A DNA stretch of 5,906 nt, from positions 1 to 5,906 of the IMG/VR virus record IMGVR_UViG_2778261591_000026. The stretch is one strand, 5' to 3'. The notes below the pieces were generated by a model. The model saw only the letters and a program-made list of their open reading frames with translations. It made no database searches and was not told where the DNA came from. The position numbers and the translations under genes were made by a program. Positions 1-5,906 of the stretch are shown one piece after another. The first letter of the stretch is position 1. Every line of letters starts with the position of its first letter. The DNA comes from a virus (taxonomy: Duplodnaviria; Heunggongvirae; Uroviricota; Caudoviricetes).

Positions 1-153
1 AGGGTTGATGTTTATCAGGGGCAAAATGGTCAATCAATCACTCTTGAATTACTGAATGCAAAGATTGGATTTGCAGCTTCAGGAAATGGCCCGCAGCAGC
101 AAAGTAGTAACCAGCAGAACACTCCTGTATACGACGATTCCATCCCATTCTGA
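1..153 (+). CDS. 3' end of a gene (5' truncated by window edge); C-terminus resembles single-stranded DNA-binding protein (SSB)
   Basis: Frame 1 is open from position 1 to TGA at 151-153. Translation ends ...GNGPQQQSSNQQNTPVYDDSIPF: a Gly/Gln/Pro-rich low-complexity tail ending in an acidic D-D-x-I-P-F tip, like the canonical SSB C-terminal tip DDDIPF. Not in the ORF track because it has no in-window Met start. Confidence 0.45.
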   Translation, partial: RVDVYQGQNGQSITLELLNAKIGFAASGNGPQQQSSNQQNTPVYDDSIPF

Positions 154-176
154 TTCAGAAAAATAAGGATTTAATC

Positions 177-473
177 ATGCCAGCGCCTCTGTATGGTGCG
201 GATGACCCGCGCCGCTGTTCCGGCAATTCCATATCGGAGGTGCTGGAAAATATCAAGAATAATCTCGACGCGTTTCTTGCTCTGCCACCAGAAACAAAAG
301 AAGAACGGAAGTACCGACGCGATATACAACTCGCAGAAAAACAGGAAAAAGACCGAATAAACGAAACATCAATCCGACCATTCCGCAAAGCCACATATAC
401 CCACTTCCCTGAATATATCGACCCGCGCCTGCGTAATTACCGCTCACGCTATGGCGCTATCAGTAATGACTGA
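177..473 (+). CDS. Hypothetical phage protein, 98 aa
   Basis: ORF track entry; ATG at 177 preceded by AAGGA at 165-169; same strand and tight spacing with neighbours. No recognised family. Confidence 0.55.
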   Translation: MPAPLYGADDPRRCSGNSISEVLENIKNNLDAFLALPPETKEERKYRRDIQLAEKQEKDRINETSIRPFRKATYTHFPEYIDPRLRNYRSRYGAISND

Positions 474-483
474 GGAATTTACC

Positions 484-774
484 ATGAAAACAATGAAGCT
501 AAACATCGACCTCGGAAAATACGTTATTACCGGAACCAAACACGACCTGATTCTTAGTGAAAGAGGAATTATCAAAGAAGGCGAGAATGCAGGGAAAGAA
601 ACACTAAGCCGTATCGGTTATTACAGCAAGTTTGAGCATCTGGTTAAAGAATTATGCAACCGTGAAATCATGTTATCTCAGGCGCAGACGCTACAGGATA
701 TTCAGCAACATATCGAGAATTTAGGTGTGTCACTTAGCATGGCTATTGACCAGTTCGTGGAGAGTAAATCATGA
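484..774 (+). CDS. Hypothetical phage protein, 96 aa (an in-frame longer form could start at 451)
   Basis: ORF track gives 451..774. ATG at 484 is preceded by GAGGA at 473-477 with 6-nt spacing and begins right after the upstream stop (471-473), so 484 is the preferred start. Stop TGA 772-774 overlaps the next ATG (ATGA). Confidence 0.6.
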
Positions 775-938
775 GAGGACTTGCATACAATCCCGGCATT
801 CTTCCAGCAGAAATGATTATTCGCCAACGCGTAAAGCCAATGCCATCGAGAGAGGAATTGCTTAAGAGAAATTCTTTTCCTTCAGTGAATCAAAACAAAT
901 ATCTGAATGCGATGTGGCGTAAAGGAGGCAAGCAGTGA
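771..938 (+). CDS. Small hypothetical protein, 55 aa ([55 protein letters not shown]), absent from the ORF track
   Basis: ATG at 771 overlaps the upstream stop (ATGA); its stop TGA 936-938 overlaps the GTG start at 935 (GTGA). It exactly fills the gap in an otherwise coupled operon. GGAGAG lies at 759-764. Confidence 0.4.
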
Positions 939-1393
939 GCGAAATTAACTATAAAGAACTGCGCGAGGCGGCGAAACAGGCAACGCAAGATGAATGGGTA
1001 GCATATATTTTGCCGGGCCATAACGGCATTTATCCTGCGCGCACGTCTGAGGGTAGGCATTGCGGATACTTTATTGACTGGCCTGGTACTGATGGACAGA
1101 GGAACGCTAGTGCCAATGCCCGTTATATCGCGGCTATCCCACCAAAAGTTGCGCTGGACCTCCTAGGCGAAATTAAGCGCCTGGAGGACAAAAATATTGA
1201 TGCCATGTGCCAAATTGCAGAGCTGGAGAGCAATCGCGCGGCGCTGGCGGCGGAGCATGGTATTCAGATTGCAATAAATGAACTGCTTGCTCTGGCCCCG
1301 CGTCTGGATAAACGAGCGGTGGATGCACTCTCTGTGGCTGTGGAGCACCTGTGTAAACTGATTAAGAAGGAGGCAGTCAGTGAGCAAAATTAA
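935..1393 (+). CDS. Ead/Ea22-like phage protein, 152 aa (paralog 1)
   Basis: GTG start at 935 with AAAGGAGG at 921-928. N-terminus [17 protein letters not shown]... resembles the N-terminal region I recall for lambda Ea22 and Ead-family proteins. Shares N-terminal and central motifs with the next ORF. Confidence 0.75.
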
Positions 1394-2054
1394 TTACCAG
1401 GCACTGCGTGAGGCGGCAGAGAAAGCAACGTGGGGAGACTGGGACTCATATAAACCACACCGTGGCGCACGTGGTTATGAGGTCCGACTAAGTAGTCAGG
1501 CCATTGCGCAACACGTCCTGAAAAACAACGCTGAATTTATTGCTGCCTTTAATCCAAAGATTGCTTTGGCACTACTGGATGAACGGGAAAGAAACCAGCA
1601 ATACATCAAACGCCGCGACCAGGAGAACGAGGATATTGCGCTAACGGTAGGGAAGCTGCGTGTTGAGCTGGAAGGCAAAGACAGCAAAATAGCCAATCTT
1701 ACCGCCGAACGCGATGCTCTTCGTGAAGGTGAGATGGGCGACGCTAGGCATAGCAACACACGGGCCGCAGCTGATATCTACTTCCAACTGGTCGAGGAGT
1801 GCGAAATTCCTGCTGGCCGTTCTCTGGTCGAGTACGTTGACGATATGCGCGAGAAGCTGGAAGCCGCAGAGAAGCGCATTGCTGAGCTGGAGTTGCGGGA
1901 GGTTGTGCTTCCGCAATGCTATAGCATGTTGCATCGCGTCGATTTTGACGAGCCTTACCACACTGAAATGGTTTACAGGCAGCATCAGGTTCTTGAGGCA
2001 CTGCACAACGCTGGAATAAACGTCACCGAAGCAGGTAAAGGAGAGGCATCATGA
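1380..2054 (+). CDS. Ead/Ea22-like phage protein, 224 aa (paralog 2), coiled-coil-rich middle and divergent C-terminal half
   Basis: GTG start at 1380 with AAGGAGG at 1366-1372. N-terminus [17 protein letters not shown]... and motif PKIALALLDERERNQQYIKRRDQENEDIALTVGKLRVELE resemble lambda Ea22 as I recall it. Stop TGA 2052-2054 overlaps next ATG 2051 (ATGA). Confidence 0.75.
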   Translation: MSKINYQALREAAEKATWGDWDSYKPHRGARGYEVRLSSQAIAQHVLKNNAEFIAAFNPKIALALLDERERNQQYIKRRDQENEDIALTVGKLRVELEGKDSKIANLTAERDALREGEMGDARHSNTRAAADIYFQLVEECEIPAGRSLVEYVDDMREKLEAAEKRIAELELREVVLPQCYSMLHRVDFDEPYHTEMVYRQHQVLEALHNAGINVTEAGKGEAS

Positions 2055-2578
2055 GCACTATCACAAGAGAATGGCTGCAGCAGACTATCAACGATTATGA
2101 AAGCGTTCGTGATGAGCTTCCTTTCGGGCTTGATGATTACCAGGGGAATATCCTGGCTGCCCTGCGTATCGCACTGGCATCGCTGGAAGCAGAGCCGGTG
2201 GCGTGGAAGGTAACATTCACGCAAATTGACCGTGAATATAACACGTTCACTGGTATGTATTCTGACAAAGCAGAAGTCGAACGGTGGGTGCGTCTGCATA
2301 AAGCATGTAATTTTCGGGCAGATATAACACCGCTTTATACCGCCAAGCCAGTGCCGGTAACTCCGGATGGTTGGATAAGCTGTAGTGAGCGAATGCCGGA
2401 AATTAGACAAACAGTTATTGGATGGAATGGATATGCAGTTAGACAATGCGTATATACAAGGAATGAATATGCCAAGACACAGAAAGGCAGAGAGCCAAGG
2501 TTTGAAACCTTAACTGGTATATGGCATGGAGTAACCCACTGGATGCCGCTACCAGAACCGCCGCAGGAGGTGAAGTGA
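2051..2578 (+). CDS. Phage protein with DUF551-like C-terminal region, 175 aa
   Basis: ATG 2051 preceded by GGAGAGG. C-terminal segment ...PDGWISCSERMPE...GW...THWMPLPEPP matches my recollection of the DUF551 signature common in lambdoid prophage accessory regions. Stop 2576-2578 overlaps next ATG 2578. Confidence 0.75.
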   Translation: MSTITREWLQQTINDYESVRDELPFGLDDYQGNILAALRIALASLEAEPVAWKVTFTQIDREYNTFTGMYSDKAEVERWVRLHKACNFRADITPLYTAKPVPVTPDGWISCSERMPEIRQTVIGWNGYAVRQCVYTRNEYAKTQKGREPRFETLTGIWHGVTHWMPLPEPPQEVK

Positions 2579-2856
2579 TGGACTCCTTCGCGAAATATAC
2601 GATTATTGACTGGATAGCCTTCCTTCAGGTTTTGCTCATCTGGTTTTATATGGCTTACAGGAGTGGACAGTGGATTGTCAGTGTAGCCTGTAGCAAGGGA
2701 TGGCGTTGGTGGAACCGGAAGAATAAAAAAGCACTGGCATTGGATTCGTTTTACGAAGCATTCAATCTTAACAGCCTTCAACCTGGTTCTGTCATTGTAG
2801 TCACCACTCAAAGCGGCATGACCATTCAGATTCATAAACCAAAAGAGGAAAAATGA
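2578..2856 (+). CDS. Small predicted membrane protein, 92 aa (the ORF track's 2521 start is an in-frame extension inside the upstream gene)
   Basis: ATG 2578 with GGAGG at 2566-2570 (7-nt spacing), coupled to the upstream stop. Translation has one strongly hydrophobic segment (IIDWIAFLQVLLIWFYMAY) followed by a basic patch (KGWRWWNRKNKK) and a roughly 45-aa tail. No recognised family. Confidence 0.55.
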   Translation: MDSFAKYTIIDWIAFLQVLLIWFYMAYRSGQWIVSVACSKGWRWWNRKNKKALALDSFYEAFNLNSLQPGSVIVVTTQSGMTIQIHKPKEEK

Positions 2857-2942
2857 TGTGGCCTATATGTGTTAATTGCGGACGGATGTGCCTATCTGGA
2901 TGGTGCCGAAAGTGCGACAAATGCACGAAGCAAAGACAATAA
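2853..2942 (+). CDS. Candidate Cys-rich micro-protein, 29 aa (MMWPICVNCGRMCLSGWCRKCDKCTKQRQ), possible zinc-ribbon-like peptide
   Basis: ATG 2853 overlaps the upstream stop 2854-2856 (ATGA); purine-rich AGAGGA at 2844-2849. Six Cys in 29 residues arranged CxxC-x3-C-x4-CxxCxxC. Too short for the ORF track; coding status unproven. Confidence 0.3.
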   Translation: MMWPICVNCGRMCLSGWCRKCDKCTKQRQ

Positions 2943-2976
2943 CAATCCTCGCACTCGCGGGGATTTCTTTTATCTG

Positions 2977-3002
2977 AACTCGCTACGGCGAGTTTTGTTT
3001 TA
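2977..3002 (+). terminator. Candidate hairpin plus U-rich tract (weak intrinsic terminator or RNA structural element)
   Basis: AACTCGC (2977-2983) pairs with GCGAGTT (2988-2994) around a 4-nt loop TACG, followed by TTGTTTTA. Lies in the 72-bp non-coding gap before the 55-aa ORF. Confidence 0.25.
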
Positions 3003-3014
3003 TGGAGATGATAA

Positions 3015-3182
3015 ATGCACTTCCGAGTCACAGGCGAATGGAATGGAGAGCCATTCAACAGAGTTATCGAAGCAGAGGACATCAATGACTGCTATAACCA
3101 CTGGATGATATGGGCGCAGATAGCAAATGCAGACATAACCAATATTCGAATTGAAGAACTGAAAGAACACCAAACCGCCTGA
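3015..3182 (+). CDS. Small hypothetical phage protein, 55 aa (MHFRVTGEWNGEPFNRVIEAEDINDCYNHWMIWAQIANADITNIRIEELKEHQTA); same position as the small ORF preceding xis in lambda
   Basis: ATG 3015 preceded by GGAGA at 3004-3008 (6-nt spacing); clean translation. Prefer this over the overlapping track ORF 2869..3108, which has no RBS and runs across the 2977-3002 hairpin. Confidence 0.55.
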   Translation: MHFRVTGEWNGEPFNRVIEAEDINDCYNHWMIWAQIANADITNIRIEELKEHQTA

Positions 3183-3196
3183 TGGCGGTTTTTTCT
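3173..3196 (+). terminator. Candidate rho-independent terminator directly after the 55-aa ORF
   Basis: AACCGCC (3173-3179) pairs with GGCGGTT (3184-3190), a 7-bp stem with 5 GC pairs and loop TGAT, followed by TTTTTCTT. The ORF stop codon sits in the loop. Confidence 0.4.
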
Positions 3197-3235
3197 TGCG
3201 AGTAATTGCGGAGACTTTGCGATGTACTTGACACT
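3196..3235 (+). promoter_or_regulatory. Probable cII-activated pI-type promoter for int (cII half-sites TTGC-N6-TTGC at 3196-3209), overlapping the xis start
   Basis: TTGC at 3196-3199 and 3206-3209 separated by 6 nt, the spacing of cII sites in lambda pRE/pI/paQ. Location at the 5' end of xis matches the known position of lambda pI. Confidence 0.5.
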
Positions 3236-3440
3236 TCAGGAGTGGAACGCACGCCAGCGACGTCCAAGAAGCCTTGAAACAGTTCGTCGATGGGTGCGCG
3301 AATGCAGGATATTCCCTCCTCCGGTTAAGGATGGAAGAGAGTATCTGTTCCACGAATCAGCGGTAAAGGTTGACTTAAATCGACCAGTAACAGGTAGCCT
3401 TTTGAAGAGGATCAGAAATGGGAAGAAGGCGAAGTCATGA
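3222..3440 (+). CDS. xis: Excisionase Xis, 72 aa, lambda type
   Basis: Translation MYLTLQEWNARQRRPRSLETVRRWVRECRIFPPPVKDGREYLFHESAVKVDLNRP... is recognisable as lambda Xis. Overlaps int by 23 nt as in lambda. Confidence 0.95.
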   Translation: MYLTLQEWNARQRRPRSLETVRRWVRECRIFPPPVKDGREYLFHESAVKVDLNRPVTGSLLKRIRNGKKAKS

Positions 3441-4488
3441 GCGCCGGGATTTACCCCCTAACCTTTATATAAGAAACAATGGATATTACTGCTACAGGGA
3501 CCCAAGGACGGGTAAAGAGTTTGGATTAGGCCGAGACAGGAGGATAGCAATCACTGAAGCAATACAGGCCAACATTGAGTTATTTTCAGGACACAAACAC
3601 AAGCCTCTGACAGCGAGAATCAACAGTGATAATTCTGTTACGTTACATTCATGGCTTGATCGCTACGAAAAAATACTCGCCAGCAGAGGAATCAAGCAGA
3701 AGACACTCATAAATTACATGAGCAAAATTAAAGCAATAAGGAGGGGTCTGCCTGATGCTCCAATTGAAGACATCACCACAAAAGAAATTGCGGCAATGCT
3801 CAATGGATACATAGACGAGGGCAAGGCGGCGTCAGCCAAGTTAATCAGATCAACACTGAGCGATGCATTCCGAGAGGCAATAGCTGAAGGCCATATAACA
3901 ACAAACCCGGTCGCTGCCACTCGCGCAGCAAAATCAGAGGTAAGGAGATCAAGACTTACGGCTGACGAATACCTGAAAATTTATCAAGCAGCAGAATCAT
4001 CACCATGTTGGCTCAGACTTGCAATGGAACTGGCTGTTGTTACCGGGCAGCGAGTTGGTGATTTATGCGAAATGAAGTGGTCTGATATCGTAGATGGATA
4101 TCTTTATGTCGAGCAAAGCAAAACAGGCGTAAAAATTGCCATCCCTACAACATTGCATGTTGATGCTCTCGGGATATCAATGAAGGAAACACTTGATAAA
4201 TGCAAAGAGATTCTTGGCGGAGAAACCATAATTGCATCTACTCGTCGTGAACCGCTTTCATCCGGAACAGTATCAAGGTATTTTATGCGCGCACGAAAAG
4301 CATCAGGTCTTTCCTTCGAAGGGGATCCGCCTACCTTTCACGAGTTGCGCAGTTTGTCTGCAAGACTCTATGAGAAGCAGATAAGCGATAAATTTGCTCA
4401 ACATCTTCTCGGGCATAAGTCGGACACCATGGCATCACAGTATCGTGATGACAGAGGCAGGGAGTGGGACAAAATTGAAATCAAATAA
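3418..4488 (+). CDS. int: Tyrosine site-specific integrase Int, 356 aa, lambda type
   Basis: Translation MGRRRSHERRDLPPNLYIRNNGYYCYRDPRTGKEFGLGRD... ending ...HLLGHKSDTMASQYRDDRGREWDKIEIK is recognisable as lambda Int. HxxR motif (HELR) present and the catalytic Tyr codon TAT is at 4441-4443 (residue 342). Confidence 0.97.
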   Translation: MGRRRSHERRDLPPNLYIRNNGYYCYRDPRTGKEFGLGRDRRIAITEAIQANIELFSGHKHKPLTARINSDNSVTLHSWLDRYEKILASRGIKQKTLINYMSKIKAIRRGLPDAPIEDITTKEIAAMLNGYIDEGKAASAKLIRSTLSDAFREAIAEGHITTNPVAATRAAKSEVRRSRLTADEYLKIYQAAESSPCWLRLAMELAVVTGQRVGDLCEMKWSDIVDGYLYVEQSKTGVKIAIPTTLHVDALGISMKETLDKCKEILGGETIIASTRREPLSSGTVSRYFMRARKASGLSFEGDPPTFHELRSLSARLYEKQISDKFAQHLLGHKSDTMASQYRDDRGREWDKIEIK

Positions 4489-4561
4489 TGATTTTATTTT
4501 GACTGATAGTGACCTGTTCGTTGCAACAAATTGATAAGCAATGCTTTTTTATAATGCCAAC
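4485..4561. other. attP P' arm: Int arm-type sites P'1-P'3 (about 4485-4513, reverse-complement orientation) and IHF H' site (about 4524-4536)
   Basis: Sequence caaataatgattttattttgactgatagtgacctgttcgttgcaacaaattgataagcaatgc is the reverse complement of the lambda P' arm as I recall it. It contains ATAGTGAC arm-type motifs and caacaaattgata, the reverse complement of an IHF-consensus-like TATCAATTTGTTG. Confidence 0.8.
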
Positions 4562-4576
4562 TTAGTATAAAAAAGC
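4562..4576. other. att core (common core O) of the prophage/host junction, attL (B-O-P') read on the opposite strand
   Basis: TTAGTATAAAAAAGC is the reverse complement of the lambda core GCTTTTTTATACTAA. Left flank (ccaac) continues as P' arm; right flank (aggcttcaacgg) continues as host attB arm. Confidence 0.9.
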
Positions 4577-4622
4577 AGGCTTCAACGGATTCATTTTTCT
4601 ATTTCATAGCCCGGAGCAACCT

Positions 4623-5906
4623 GTGAACACATTTTCAGTTTCCCGTCTGGCGCTGGCATTGGCTTTTGGCGTGACGCTGACCGCCTGTAGCTCAACCCCG
4701 CCCGATCAACGTCCTTCTGATCAAACCGCGCCTGGTACCTCTTCTCGCCCGATTCTGTCGGCAAAAGAAGCGCAGAATTTCGATGCTCAACACTATTTTG
4801 CATCCCTGACACCAGGTGCTGCAGCGTGGAATCCTTCCCCGATTACCCTGCCTGCGCAACCTGACTTTGTTGTCGGCCCGGCGGGCACTCAAGGTGTAAC
4901 GCATACCACGATTCAGGCGGCGGTAGATGCGGCAATTATCAAGCGTACCAACAAGCGCCAGTATATTGCCGTGATGCCTGGTGAGTATCAGGGAACGGTA
5001 TATGTCCCTGCCGCTCCGGGTGGAATTACTCTGTACGGTACAGGTGAAAAACCGATTGATGTGAAGATTGGGCTTTCCCTTGATGGTGGCATGAGCCCTG
5101 CCGACTGGCGTCACGACGTCAACCCGCGCGGCAAATATATGCCAGGTAAACCAGCGTGGTATATGTACGATAGCTGCCAGAGCAAACGCAGCGACAGTAT
5201 CGGTGTTCTCTGCTCTGCGGTCTTCTGGTCACAAAACAATGGCCTGCAACTGCAAAATCTGACCATCGAAAACACGCTGGGCGATAGCGTAGATGCAGGT
5301 AACCATCCGGCGGTGGCACTGCGTACTGATGGTGACCAGGTACAGATTAACAACGTTAACATTCTCGGTCGTCAGAACACCTTCTTTGTCACCAACAGCG
5401 GTGTGCAGAACCGTCTGGAAACGAATCGTCAGCCGCGTACGCTGGTGACCAACAGCTACATTGAAGGGGATGTGGATATCGTTTCTGGTCGCGGCGCAGT
5501 GGTGTTCGATAACACCGAATTCCGCGTGGTGAACTCACGTACTCAGCAAGAAGCGTATGTGTTTGCACCGGCTACGCTGTCCAACATTTACTACGGTTTC
5601 CTCGCCGTAAACAGCCGTTTCAATGCTTTCGGTGATGGTGTGGCGCAACTGGGCCGCTCGCTGGATGTTGATGCCAATACCAACGGTCAGGTGGTGATCC
5701 GTGATAGCGCCATCAACGAAGGTTTTAACACGGCTAAACCGTGGGCCGATGCGGTGATCTCTAATCGTCCGTTTGCGGGTAATACCGGCAGCGTAAATGA
5801 TAACGACGAAATACAGCGCAATCTGAATGACACTAACTACAACCGCATGTGGGAATACAATAACCGCGGCGTGGGTAGTAAAGTGGTTGCAGAGGCGAAG
5901 AAGTAA
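4623..5906 (+). CDS. ybhC: Host outer-membrane lipoprotein YbhC, 427 aa (pectinesterase-like, carbohydrate esterase family 8 fold)
   Basis: GTG start at 4623 with GGAG at 4612-4615. Signal peptide with lipobox L-T-A-C (Cys22). Sequence recognisable as E. coli YbhC, the gene next to attB-lambda. Stop TAA at 5904-5906 is the last codon in the window. Confidence 0.93.
   Translation: MNTFSVSRLALALAFGVTLTACSSTPPDQRPSDQTAPGTSSRPILSAKEAQNFDAQHYFASLTPGAAAWNPSPITLPAQPDFVVGPAGTQGVTHTTIQAAVDAAIIKRTNKRQYIAVMPGEYQGTVYVPAAPGGITLYGTGEKPIDVKIGLSLDGGMSPADWRHDVNPRGKYMPGKPAWYMYDSCQSKRSDSIGVLCSAVFWSQNNGLQLQNLTIENTLGDSVDAGNHPAVALRTDGDQVQINNVNILGRQNTFFVTNSGVQNRLETNRQPRTLVTNSYIEGDVDIVSGRGAVVFDNTEFRVVNSRTQQEAYVFAPATLSNIYYGFLAVNSRFNAFGDGVAQLGRSLDVDANTNGQVVIRDSAINEGFNTAKPWADAVISNRPFAGNTGSVNDNDEIQRNLNDTNYNRMWEYNNRGVGSKVVAEAKK

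Follow-up and report, generated by a model that had tools for sequence, protein, structure and literature searches.

A P22/HK97-Type Mosaic Segment of the Early-Left Operon, Headed by abc2, in a Lambdoid Prophage at attB-Lambda

We analyzed a stretch of 5,906 nucleotides (nt) of virus DNA (Caudoviricetes; positions 1 to 5,906 of IMG/VR record IMGVR_UViG_2778261591_000026), here called the window, and in particular its row of small genes at 177-3182, here called the block. Coordinates are window positions, and all features lie on the plus strand unless stated otherwise. Judged by its sequence and gene order, the block is an ordinary, already known mosaic accessory segment of an early-left operon of the P22/HK97 type; its difference from phage lambda reflects membership in this second common lambdoid type and is nothing out of the ordinary. 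Very probably, it is the distal, nonessential part of the pL operon of an HK97/HK106/P22-type prophage with a lambda-type orf55-xis-int-att end, a reading that includes Abc2 as its first product, expression from pL, and an origin by recombination. A first-pass annotation had described the block as made of uncharacterized small genes. That description fails for the first gene, whose product is by homology Abc2, a structurally and biochemically characterized RecBCD modifier.

Layout and mosaic origin of the block

The plus strand of the window is an uninterrupted row of genes, in which the end of a gene for a single-strand DNA binding protein (SSB) homolog is followed by nine same-strand open reading frames (ORFs) in 177-3182, xis, int, and then ybhC (Table 1). 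Phage homology stops exactly at 4576, and ybhC, ybhJ, and ybhI come next in Escherichia coli genomes; on this ground we take the window to be the int-side end of a lambdoid prophage integrated at attB-lambda, shown in the direction of early-left (pL) transcription. As proposed in the first-pass annotation, xis, int, and the att core are of lambda type (98 to 100% protein identity). The overlapping stop and start codons that it listed were likewise read directly: ATGA at 771, 2051, and 2853, GTGA at 935, and TGATG at 2576-2580. In addition, the ORF ending at 1393 and the GTG start at 1380 overlap by 14 nt. A Shine-Dalgarno (SD) sequence lies 6 to 9 nt 5' of every start, such as AAGGAGG in front of both Ead genes and AGGAGGTG in front of 2578.

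Because all but one of the ORFs fall into curated families, all have an SD sequence, and all are found as exact sequences in public data, the ORFs of the block are, on the evidence of sequence, not products of chance. Profile scans and hydropathy confirmed the two Ead/Ea22 paralogs, the DUF551 protein, the small membrane protein (DUF4752), and the Cys-rich micro-ORF that had been named before. The "several ORFs with no recognizable family" are reduced to a single one, the 29-amino-acid (aa) micro-ORF, for which profile scans found no Pfam or PHROG family. Genes on the opposite strand were considered and rejected for want of convincing family support, the five longest minus-strand ORFs giving no Pfam match and one marginal partial PHROG match (E = 2.3e-4). 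A hidden RNA element was rejected as well, since Rfam at E values up to 1 returned nothing beyond a sub-threshold Leu-leader match to the minus strand of the terminator-hairpin region.

Table 1. Features of the window, with the evidence for each
Feature	Position	Strand	Evidence or remark
SSB-like gene, 3' end (HK97 gp40/HK446 gp31 family)	1-153	+	Last 50 codons, acidic tail ...YDDSIPF
abc2, anti-RecBCD protein 2, 98 aa	177-473	+	PF11043, 3.5e-44; phrog_656, 1.1e-49
DUF5405/phrog_154 gene, 96 aa	484-774	+	PF17399, 1.2e-05; phrog_154, 1.7e-32
DUF2737 gene, 55 aa, isoelectric point (pI) 11	771-938	+	PF10930, 8.8e-32
Ead/Ea22-like paralog 1 (Ead1), 152 aa, GTG start	935-1393	+	PF13935, 2e-17
Ead/Ea22-like paralog 2 (Ead2), 224 aa, GTG start	1380-2054	+	PF13935, 4.2e-29
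EaA-like protein with C-terminal DUF551 domain, 175 aa	2051-2578	+	PF04448, 7.4e-16, residues 107-172
DUF551 core cassette (about aa 118-161)	2403-2532	+	Flanks 2354-2402 (PVTPDGWISCSERMP) and 2533-2580 (THWMPLPEPPQEVK)
DUF4752 gene, 92 aa	2578-2856	+	PF15944, 2.4e-36
Cys-rich micro-ORF (MMWPICVNCGRMCLSGWCRKCDKCTKQRQ), 29 aa	2853-2942	+	No Pfam/PHROG family
orf55 (lambdap35), 55 aa, last gene before xis	3015-3182	+	phrog_676, 1.3e-37
xis (excisionase)	3222-3440	+	PF07825, 3.9e-41; 98.6-100% identity to lambda and HK97 Xis
int, lambda-type tyrosine integrase	3418-4488	+	98.9% identity to lambda Int, 100% to UTAK-1
att core (reverse complement of GCTTTTTTATACTAA)	4562-4576	-	Read directly; prophage/chromosome junction, ybhC side
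Chromosomal gene ybhC	4623-5906		Follows att core
86-nt direct repeat, two copies	922-1007 and 1367-1452	+	Repeat search; 73% identity, spacing 445
Two tandem terminator-like hairpins, each with a U run	2944-2965 and 2976-2995	+	Terminator scan; minimum free energy (MFE) -25 kcal/mol, z = -5.9
Intrinsic-terminator-like hairpin over the orf55 stop	3172-3191	+	Terminator scan; MFE -13 kcal/mol, z = -3.25

Other E. coli genomes together cover every base of the window at 99.9% identity or more, and public collections contain each of the nine proteins as an exact sequence. Positions 1-533 (100%) and 529-2402 (99.9%) match the OkiPb01684 prophage, which lies at mlrA (yehV) and has a different integrase; positions 1566-5906 match GCA_025000245.1 at 99.9%, at the same attB; and positions 2354-5906 match strain UTAK-1 at 100%. 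Since no complete E. coli genome holds at least 80% of the window in one place, the combination is recombinant. The block would have been built by homologous recombination at short conserved boundaries (Ead gene starts, the sequences on either side of the DUF551 core, and terminator hairpins), and such assembly accounts for a combination that is unique although every piece of it is common. One boundary of this kind is the 86-nt repeat, which consists of the SD sequence AAGGAGG, the GTG codon, and the conserved first codons of the Ead genes and forms a module boundary common to Ead-type genes; both copies match one and the same HK106/HK97 segment.

The order abc2-(DUF5405)-DUF2737-ea-type genes-(DUF4752-micro-ORF)-orf55-xis-int, with optional members in parentheses, is standard in P22, HK97, HK106, HK140, HK446, and many E. 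coli prophages. This synteny supports the earlier view that the block is the part of the early-left operon in which accessory genes vary, and high-identity matches in the same order are found in phages of the HK97/P22 type and not in lambda. The claimed difference from lambda holds for most genes and breaks down at the right end, where lambda homology (97.9% nt identity) begins at 2939. On the right, the variable region ends at the tandem hairpins (2944-2995), which are kept in lambda and are a point where morons insert. The hairpin at 3172-3191 carries a terminator annotation in HK97 and HK140. In HK106, a moron-like insert of 812 bp directly follows the first hairpin and is bordered by a repeated 16-nt sequence (window 2961-2976); the gene on the insert is annotated as a "queuine tRNA-ribosyltransferase" (DpdA-like).

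Abc2 and the upstream SSB-like gene

The product of 177-473 scores 149.4 bits against PF11043 (cutoff, 25), with residues 1-98 on profile positions 1-97, and matches the P22 Abc2 chain of the RecBCD complex (PDB entries 8b1t and 8b1u) over its full length, at 1.6e-40 for 8b1t. It is 70% identical to P22 Abc2 (tblastn), and Pro68, within the IRPFRKATYT motif, is kept in the alignment to 8b1t. The exact sequence was found on 230 contigs. By homology, the product is Abc2, a member of a characterized counter-defense and recombination protein family, which would bind RecC and change the response to Chi and the loading of recombinase. The statement of the first-pass annotation that none of the products can be assigned to a known defense or anti-defense family is thus overturned by this gene.

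The structure of P22-type Abc2 was solved by cryo-electron microscopy. In the RecBCD-Abc2-PpiB structure, P68 of Abc2 enters the active site of host PpiB (PMC9836394). Abc2 leaves RecBCD unwinding unblocked and is thought to hijack the enzyme, passing its single-stranded DNA (ssDNA) product to the phage recombinase Erf (Wilkinson et al., PMC9836394). It is one of four anti-RecBCD types in a survey of 325 lambdoid phages (PMC12315714), and, unlike Gam, it does not trigger the toxicity of P2 OLD (PMC12445682).

Upstream of abc2, the window contains the end of the SSB-like gene and no exo; erf lies outside the window. The SSB-like end is 100% identical over 50 aa to the homologs of HK106, FORC_082, and OkiPb01684, and the full-length homolog (OkiPb01684 locus, 2283-2663) matches phrog_44, single-strand DNA binding protein, at 2.9e-27. 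In all close relatives examined, erf precedes the SSB-like gene; HK97, HK106, and HK446 have it, as does the OkiPb01684 relative, whose sequence equals that of the window (100%) throughout 1-533. The acidic tail DDSIPF of the SSB-like product resembles that of E. coli SSB, which suggests that the product may recruit SSB-interacting host proteins.

Ead/Ea22-like paralogs, DUF5405, DUF2737, and orf55

The two Ead proteins score 64.5 bits (Ead1) and 102.3 bits (Ead2) against PF13935 (cutoff, 27) and are 38% identical to each other over 104 aa. Ead2 covers the full profile and combines an Ea22-type N terminus and coiled coil with a non-lambda C-terminal domain: it is 55% identical to residues 1-79 of lambda Ea22, the tblastn alignment ending at residue 79, and 43% identical to the coiled coil in the middle of P22 EaD. 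Ead2 gave no PDB match at E values up to 1, the solved C-terminal domain of lambda Ea22, a nuclear magnetic resonance (NMR) dimer, included. Ead1 has the N-terminal domain together with a short coiled coil, corresponding to profile positions 1-90 of 139, without a C-terminal domain of the family type. The exact Ead1 and Ead2 sequences are found on 29 and 170 contigs, respectively. The Prokaryotic Genome Annotation Pipeline (PGAP) calls a 99.3% identical Ead1 copy in OkiPb01684 a partial pseudogene; its 152-codon ORF is intact. For lambda and Stx-phage members of the family, it has been reported that Ea22 favors lysogeny and forms tetramers (PMC7093339, PMC10834534). The C-terminal domains vary across the Ea22 family, and one variant carries DUF551 (PMC10834534).

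The DUF5405 product is a marginal Pfam member (PF17399, 26.1 bits; cutoff, 21.6) with a stronger match to phrog_154, and it is 98% identical to HK446 gp29 and HK140 gp38. Its gene is an optional module between abc2 and the DUF2737 gene, absent from HK97, HK106, UTAK-1, and FORC_082; the exact sequence is found on 55 contigs. The PHROG label of phrog_154, "replication initiation protein," was not adopted, being unsupported in Pfam, NCBIfam, and PDB, and is probably an inherited annotation. In OkiPb01684, the gene is split by a 1,954-bp IS100 with a 5-bp target duplication (window 529-533).

The DUF2737 product (PF10930, 109.2 bits; cutoff, 25) is 77% identical to P22 orf56, is a homolog of HK97 gp38, and is 91 to 100% identical to the HK97, HK106, and E. 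coli copies; its exact sequence occurs on at least 1,000 contigs. The product of 3015-3182 is 91% identical to lambda orf55 (tblastn), with weak similarity over 25 aa to P22 EaG, and its exact sequence is found on 213 contigs. As to the function of orf55, only a speculative T7-Gp2-like model has been put forward (PMC8614690). A literature search for DUF4752, DUF2737, and DUF5405 found no functional study, and a PDB sequence search with Ead2, the DUF551 protein, DUF5405, DUF4752, and orf55 gave nothing significant.

Expression and proposed role

Between positions 1 and 4700, the promoter scan found one sigma-70-like site, inside int, compared with 7.0 expected by chance. The genes are codirectional, tightly packed, and partly coupled in translation, and no promoter-like site lies among them. 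In the lysogen, they are therefore most likely not expressed; after infection or induction, N-antiterminated RNA polymerase coming from pL would transcribe them, reading through the three terminator-like hairpins. Abc2 would then convert RecBCD from a destroyer of phage DNA into a supplier of ssDNA for Erf and the adjoining phage SSB. By analogy with the tetrameric coiled-coil proteins of lambda and Stx phages, Ead1 and Ead2 may bias infection toward lysogeny. The DUF5405, DUF2737, DUF551, DUF4752, and orf55 proteins and the 29-aa peptide, small early products that make up six of the nine, would most likely bind proteins of the host or of rival elements, in host takeover or counter-defense, as has been shown for their neighbors Abc2 and, in HK446, Oad2. 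The first-pass annotation had expected modulators of host physiology or of the lysis-lysogeny decision among the products, and as a general expectation this has support in the literature (PMC7093339; 10.64898/2026.07.10.737580).

Several points weigh against this picture. Dependence on pL and silence in the lysogen are read from the layout alone, and the promoter scan covered sigma-70 consensus sites only. The partnership of Abc2 with Erf rests on relatives that are 100% identical over 1-533, erf being outside the window. The lambda Ea22 phenotype may not transfer to the paralogs, as the C-terminal domain of Ead2 differs and Ead1 has none. Finally, AlphaFold2 models of the DUF551 protein (two domains; predicted local distance difference test score, 73) gave no informative fold match.

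Is the block an anti-defense island?

A broader reading would see the block, beyond Abc2, as an anti-defense island in which the DUF551 core and the Ead gene are products of an arms race. We regard this as doubtful, although the position speaks for it. According to a July 2026 preprint, HK446 gp27 (Oad2, EaE family) directly inhibits P2 OLD, and the locus beside the recombination genes is an anti-defense hotspot in which EaE is also found fused to EaD/Ea22 proteins (10.64898/2026.07.10.737580). The gene for gp27 directly follows that for DUF2737 in the same gene row, and an EaE/Oad2-family gene occupies this slot in all seven comparators (HK446, HK97, HK106, HK140, HF4s, UTAK-1, and FORC_082); in the window, the slot is filled by Ead1. 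Relatives also carry cargo suggestive of counter-defense, such as the DpdA-like transglycosylase of HK106 and a MazG-like dATP/dGTP pyrophosphohydrolase in UTAK-1.

On the other side, position alone is weak evidence, and no window protein is related to Oad2. With HK446 gp27, HK97 gp37, and P22 EaE (conserved ETPATDAFLAEVRAQ motif) as the test set for the EaE/Oad2 family, no BLASTP match to the window proteins was better than E = 0.07, and when the family alignment was compared by hhalign with Ead1, Ead2, and the DUF551 protein, the probabilities were 0.6% or less. These comparisons rule out an Oad2 in disguise; by sequence, the window carries Abc2 but no Oad2. The inserts recovered in the anti-OLD library screen are reported all to carry gp27 (10.64898/2026.07.10.737580); gp29 and gp28 of HK446 are 98% and 93% identical to their window counterparts. 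Ea22 already has another, experimentally supported phenotype, the prolysogenic one. A PADLOC-DB v2 scan of all ten products gave no credible match to a defense system; a weak coiled-coil match of Ead2 to PbeC (E = 0.0035, 14 bits) was regarded as compositional. A literature search combining "exo-xis" and "anti-defense" found no paper. An anti-defense role of genes other than Abc2 is possible, on position only.

The anti-defense reading also draws on the DUF551 protein, whose core is a hypervariable cassette on near-identical backbones. The domain (59.2 bits; PF04448 cutoff, 22) has the C-terminal DUF551 pattern of about 68 aa, starting with W..S.R.P and ending with W.PLP.PP, and its invariant residues are W108, S112, R114, P116, W164, L167, P168, and P171. 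Both ends of the 175-aa protein resemble P22 EaA (33 to 38%), and its C terminus resembles P22 orf87; the exact sequence was found on 216 contigs. OkiPb01684 is 99.9% identical to the window up to 2402 and again over 2533-2580, but not between, and the identity of UTAK-1 reaches 100% from 2354; the 47 nt common to both encode PVTPDGWISCSERMP.

We compared 120 close homologs, grouping the core types by eye. Residues 46-116 are 96 to 100% identical in nearly all of them, whereas residues 1-45 occur in at least five versions, and the core (about 117-161) occurs as 49 distinct strings of 39 to 65 aa. These strings form roughly a dozen mutually dissimilar types with 9 to 31% identity to the window core, and all are bounded by the invariant motifs SERMP and HWMPLPEPP. 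The window core allele, at 94 to 99% identity, is carried by at least 12 otherwise dissimilar proteins of 110 to 292 aa, including proteins with Ead N termini, HK106 gp32 (Ead coiled-coil), and the MazG-like protein of UTAK-1. Among 1.84 billion cluster representatives, DUF551 had 1,085 matches, almost always C-terminal, and of the 150 best representatives nearly all carry it at the C terminus. It is also present in YfdS of the cryptic prophage CPS-53 (PMC4776307).

At 22 places, a different prophage type carries the identical gene for the 175-aa protein in its nin region, preceded by an Ead gene. In GCA_043712715.2, the nin-region pair (locus 5273-6528) is 99.5% identical to the 3' part of the Ead2 gene and the DUF551 gene of the window (1566-2584); it stands after a lambda-P-like replication gene and before NinX and terminase. 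Since the same cassette occurs in the early-left operon and in the nin region, it moves between early-left and early-right operons. It could be imagined that DUF551 is a portable C-terminal targeting module, its core swapped among EaA-like, Ead coiled-coil, and MazG-like carriers, and that DUF551 proteins, and perhaps Ead1, neutralize variable immune proteins of hosts or prophages, forming a second anti-defense cluster beside Abc2; we consider this unlikely.

Intactness of Ead1 and of the DUF4752/micro-ORF pair

That the block is in part recombinational debris, with Ead1 a truncated remnant of recombination at an Ead gene start and the 29-aa ORF a chance reading frame, is improbable. The PGAP pseudogene call on the Ead1 copy of OkiPb01684 and the incomplete profile match of Ead1, whose final codons lie in the duplicated boundary sequence, would fit such a remnant, and the micro-ORF, besides having no family, is of a kind usually ignored by gene callers. 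Against this, the Ead1 ORF is intact and has a strong SD sequence, its exact 152-aa product recurs on as many contigs as given above, and a further 152-aa member of the Ead1 cluster is found on 77 contigs and named in both E. coli and Salmonella.

The micro-ORF, too, shows signs of being maintained. Its start overlaps the DUF4752 stop, and its 29 aa include six Cys residues. It is annotated as HK106 gp30 and is 100% identical in mEp213, mEp043, HK106, and Kapi1 (tblastn). At 64 to 76% identity, it recurs in the virulent siphophages Escherichia phage C1 and Salmonella phage KFS-SE2 (tblastn; loci at about 2001-2078), where the copies are unannotated (MWPICKHCGRMCLNSWCRKCDKPSK) and intact, keep five Cys residues, overlap the upstream stop (TGATATG), and precede a terminator. 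Between C1 and KFS-SE2, the copies show synonymous differences. The micro-ORF probably encodes a real zinc-knuckle microprotein missed by gene callers. The 90% cluster representative of the 29-aa peptide, a 480-aa TolC-like outer-membrane protein, shares nothing with it and was set aside as an artifact of clustering very short sequences.

The preceding gene encodes a DUF4752 protein (PF15944, 124.1 bits; cutoff, 27) with one predicted N-terminal membrane helix (Kyte-Doolittle 19-residue maximum of 1.78 at residues 8-26), followed by a basic segment and, toward the C terminus, a beta-rich part (pI 9.6). The product is 100% identical in HK106, UTAK-1, and HF4s and occurs on at least 1,000 contigs; WD40 matches to it in PDB were dismissed as compositional, without a passing stretch. 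It is highly improbable that DUF4752 and the microprotein form a terminator-bounded moron, expressed from the prophage to protect the lysogen by superinfection exclusion or defense, as might be thought from the predicted membrane anchor, the two strong terminator hairpins after the pair, the moron-like insertion of HK106 at the same spot, and the frequency of exclusion genes in lambdoid prophages, because there is no promoter-like site 5' of 2578, the start at 2578 overlaps the preceding stop in the manner typical of translational coupling inside operons, the orientation is that of the repressed pL operon, no product has a PADLOC match, HF4s has DUF4752 without the micro-ORF, and virulent phages, for which there is no lysogen to protect, also have the micro-ORF.

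As it is, the block matters little, being routine lambdoid mosaicism that PGAP has annotated in hundreds of E. coli genomes. Its residual value is that of a list of candidates at a locus newly recognized as a place to find small inhibitors of immunity, Oad2 of HK446 being at least one; the DUF551 cassette pattern and the conserved microprotein add some interest. Should any of the DUF5405, DUF2737, Ead, DUF551, or DUF4752 proteins or the microprotein turn out to inhibit a defense system or to steer the lysis-lysogeny decision, the finding would hold for thousands of prophages of enterobacteria, Stx phages among them.

Comparison with known phages

Among the known systems, the locus of Oad2 in HK446 has the same neighbors as the block, with Abc2 74% identical to that of the window alongside the DUF5405 (gp29) and DUF2737 (gp28) products. 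The HK446 concept of fast-evolving small inhibitors beside genes that manipulate RecBCD applies here; unlike HK446 gp27, the window genes other than abc2 have no known anti-defense activity.

In lambda, the exo-xis region occupies the same slot between the recombination genes and xis (PMC3824215; PMC7093339; PMC8614690; PMC10834534). Lambda and the window have in common the Ea22 N terminus and coiled coil, orf55, the intergenic hairpins, and xis, int, and att (about 98% nt identity). The recombination module of the window, by contrast, is of the Erf/SSB/Abc2 type, and tblastn found nothing in the window that corresponds to lambda exo, bet, gam, orf60a, orf61, orf63, or ea8.5. The lambda order orf60a-orf63-orf61-ea22-ea8.5-orf55 is not found either, only the 79 aa of Ea22 and orf55 giving tblastn matches; in this respect, the first-pass annotation was right that the block does not have the ea22/ea8.5 arrangement.

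The ea region of P22 (abc2-orf56-eaE-orf45-eaF-eaD-eaI-eaA-eaG-eaC-xis-int) agrees with the window in position, in orientation, and in having abc2 first, as well as in the small overlapping ea genes that follow the orf56/DUF2737 homolog and lead to xis-int. P22 abc1, eaE, eaF, eaI, eaG, and eaC have no homolog in the window, which in turn has DUF5405, a second Ead gene, DUF4752, the micro-ORF, and lambda orf55 in addition; its integrase and att are of lambda type and not of P22 type. For the P22-like phage L, too, most genes of the early-left operon are described as being of unknown function (PMC8022706).

HK97, HK106, and HK446 (Hendrixvirinae) have nearly the same row, from erf-gp40(SSB)-abc2 to xis-int, together with the lambda att core, and the shared segments are 86 to 99% identical to the window at the nucleotide level. 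They differ in having an EaE/Oad2-family gene right after DUF2737, where the window has an Ead gene. In HK97, there is only one gene between DUF2737 and xis, whereas HK106 has the extra DpdA-like gene and fuses the DUF551 allele of the window to an Ead coiled-coil protein.

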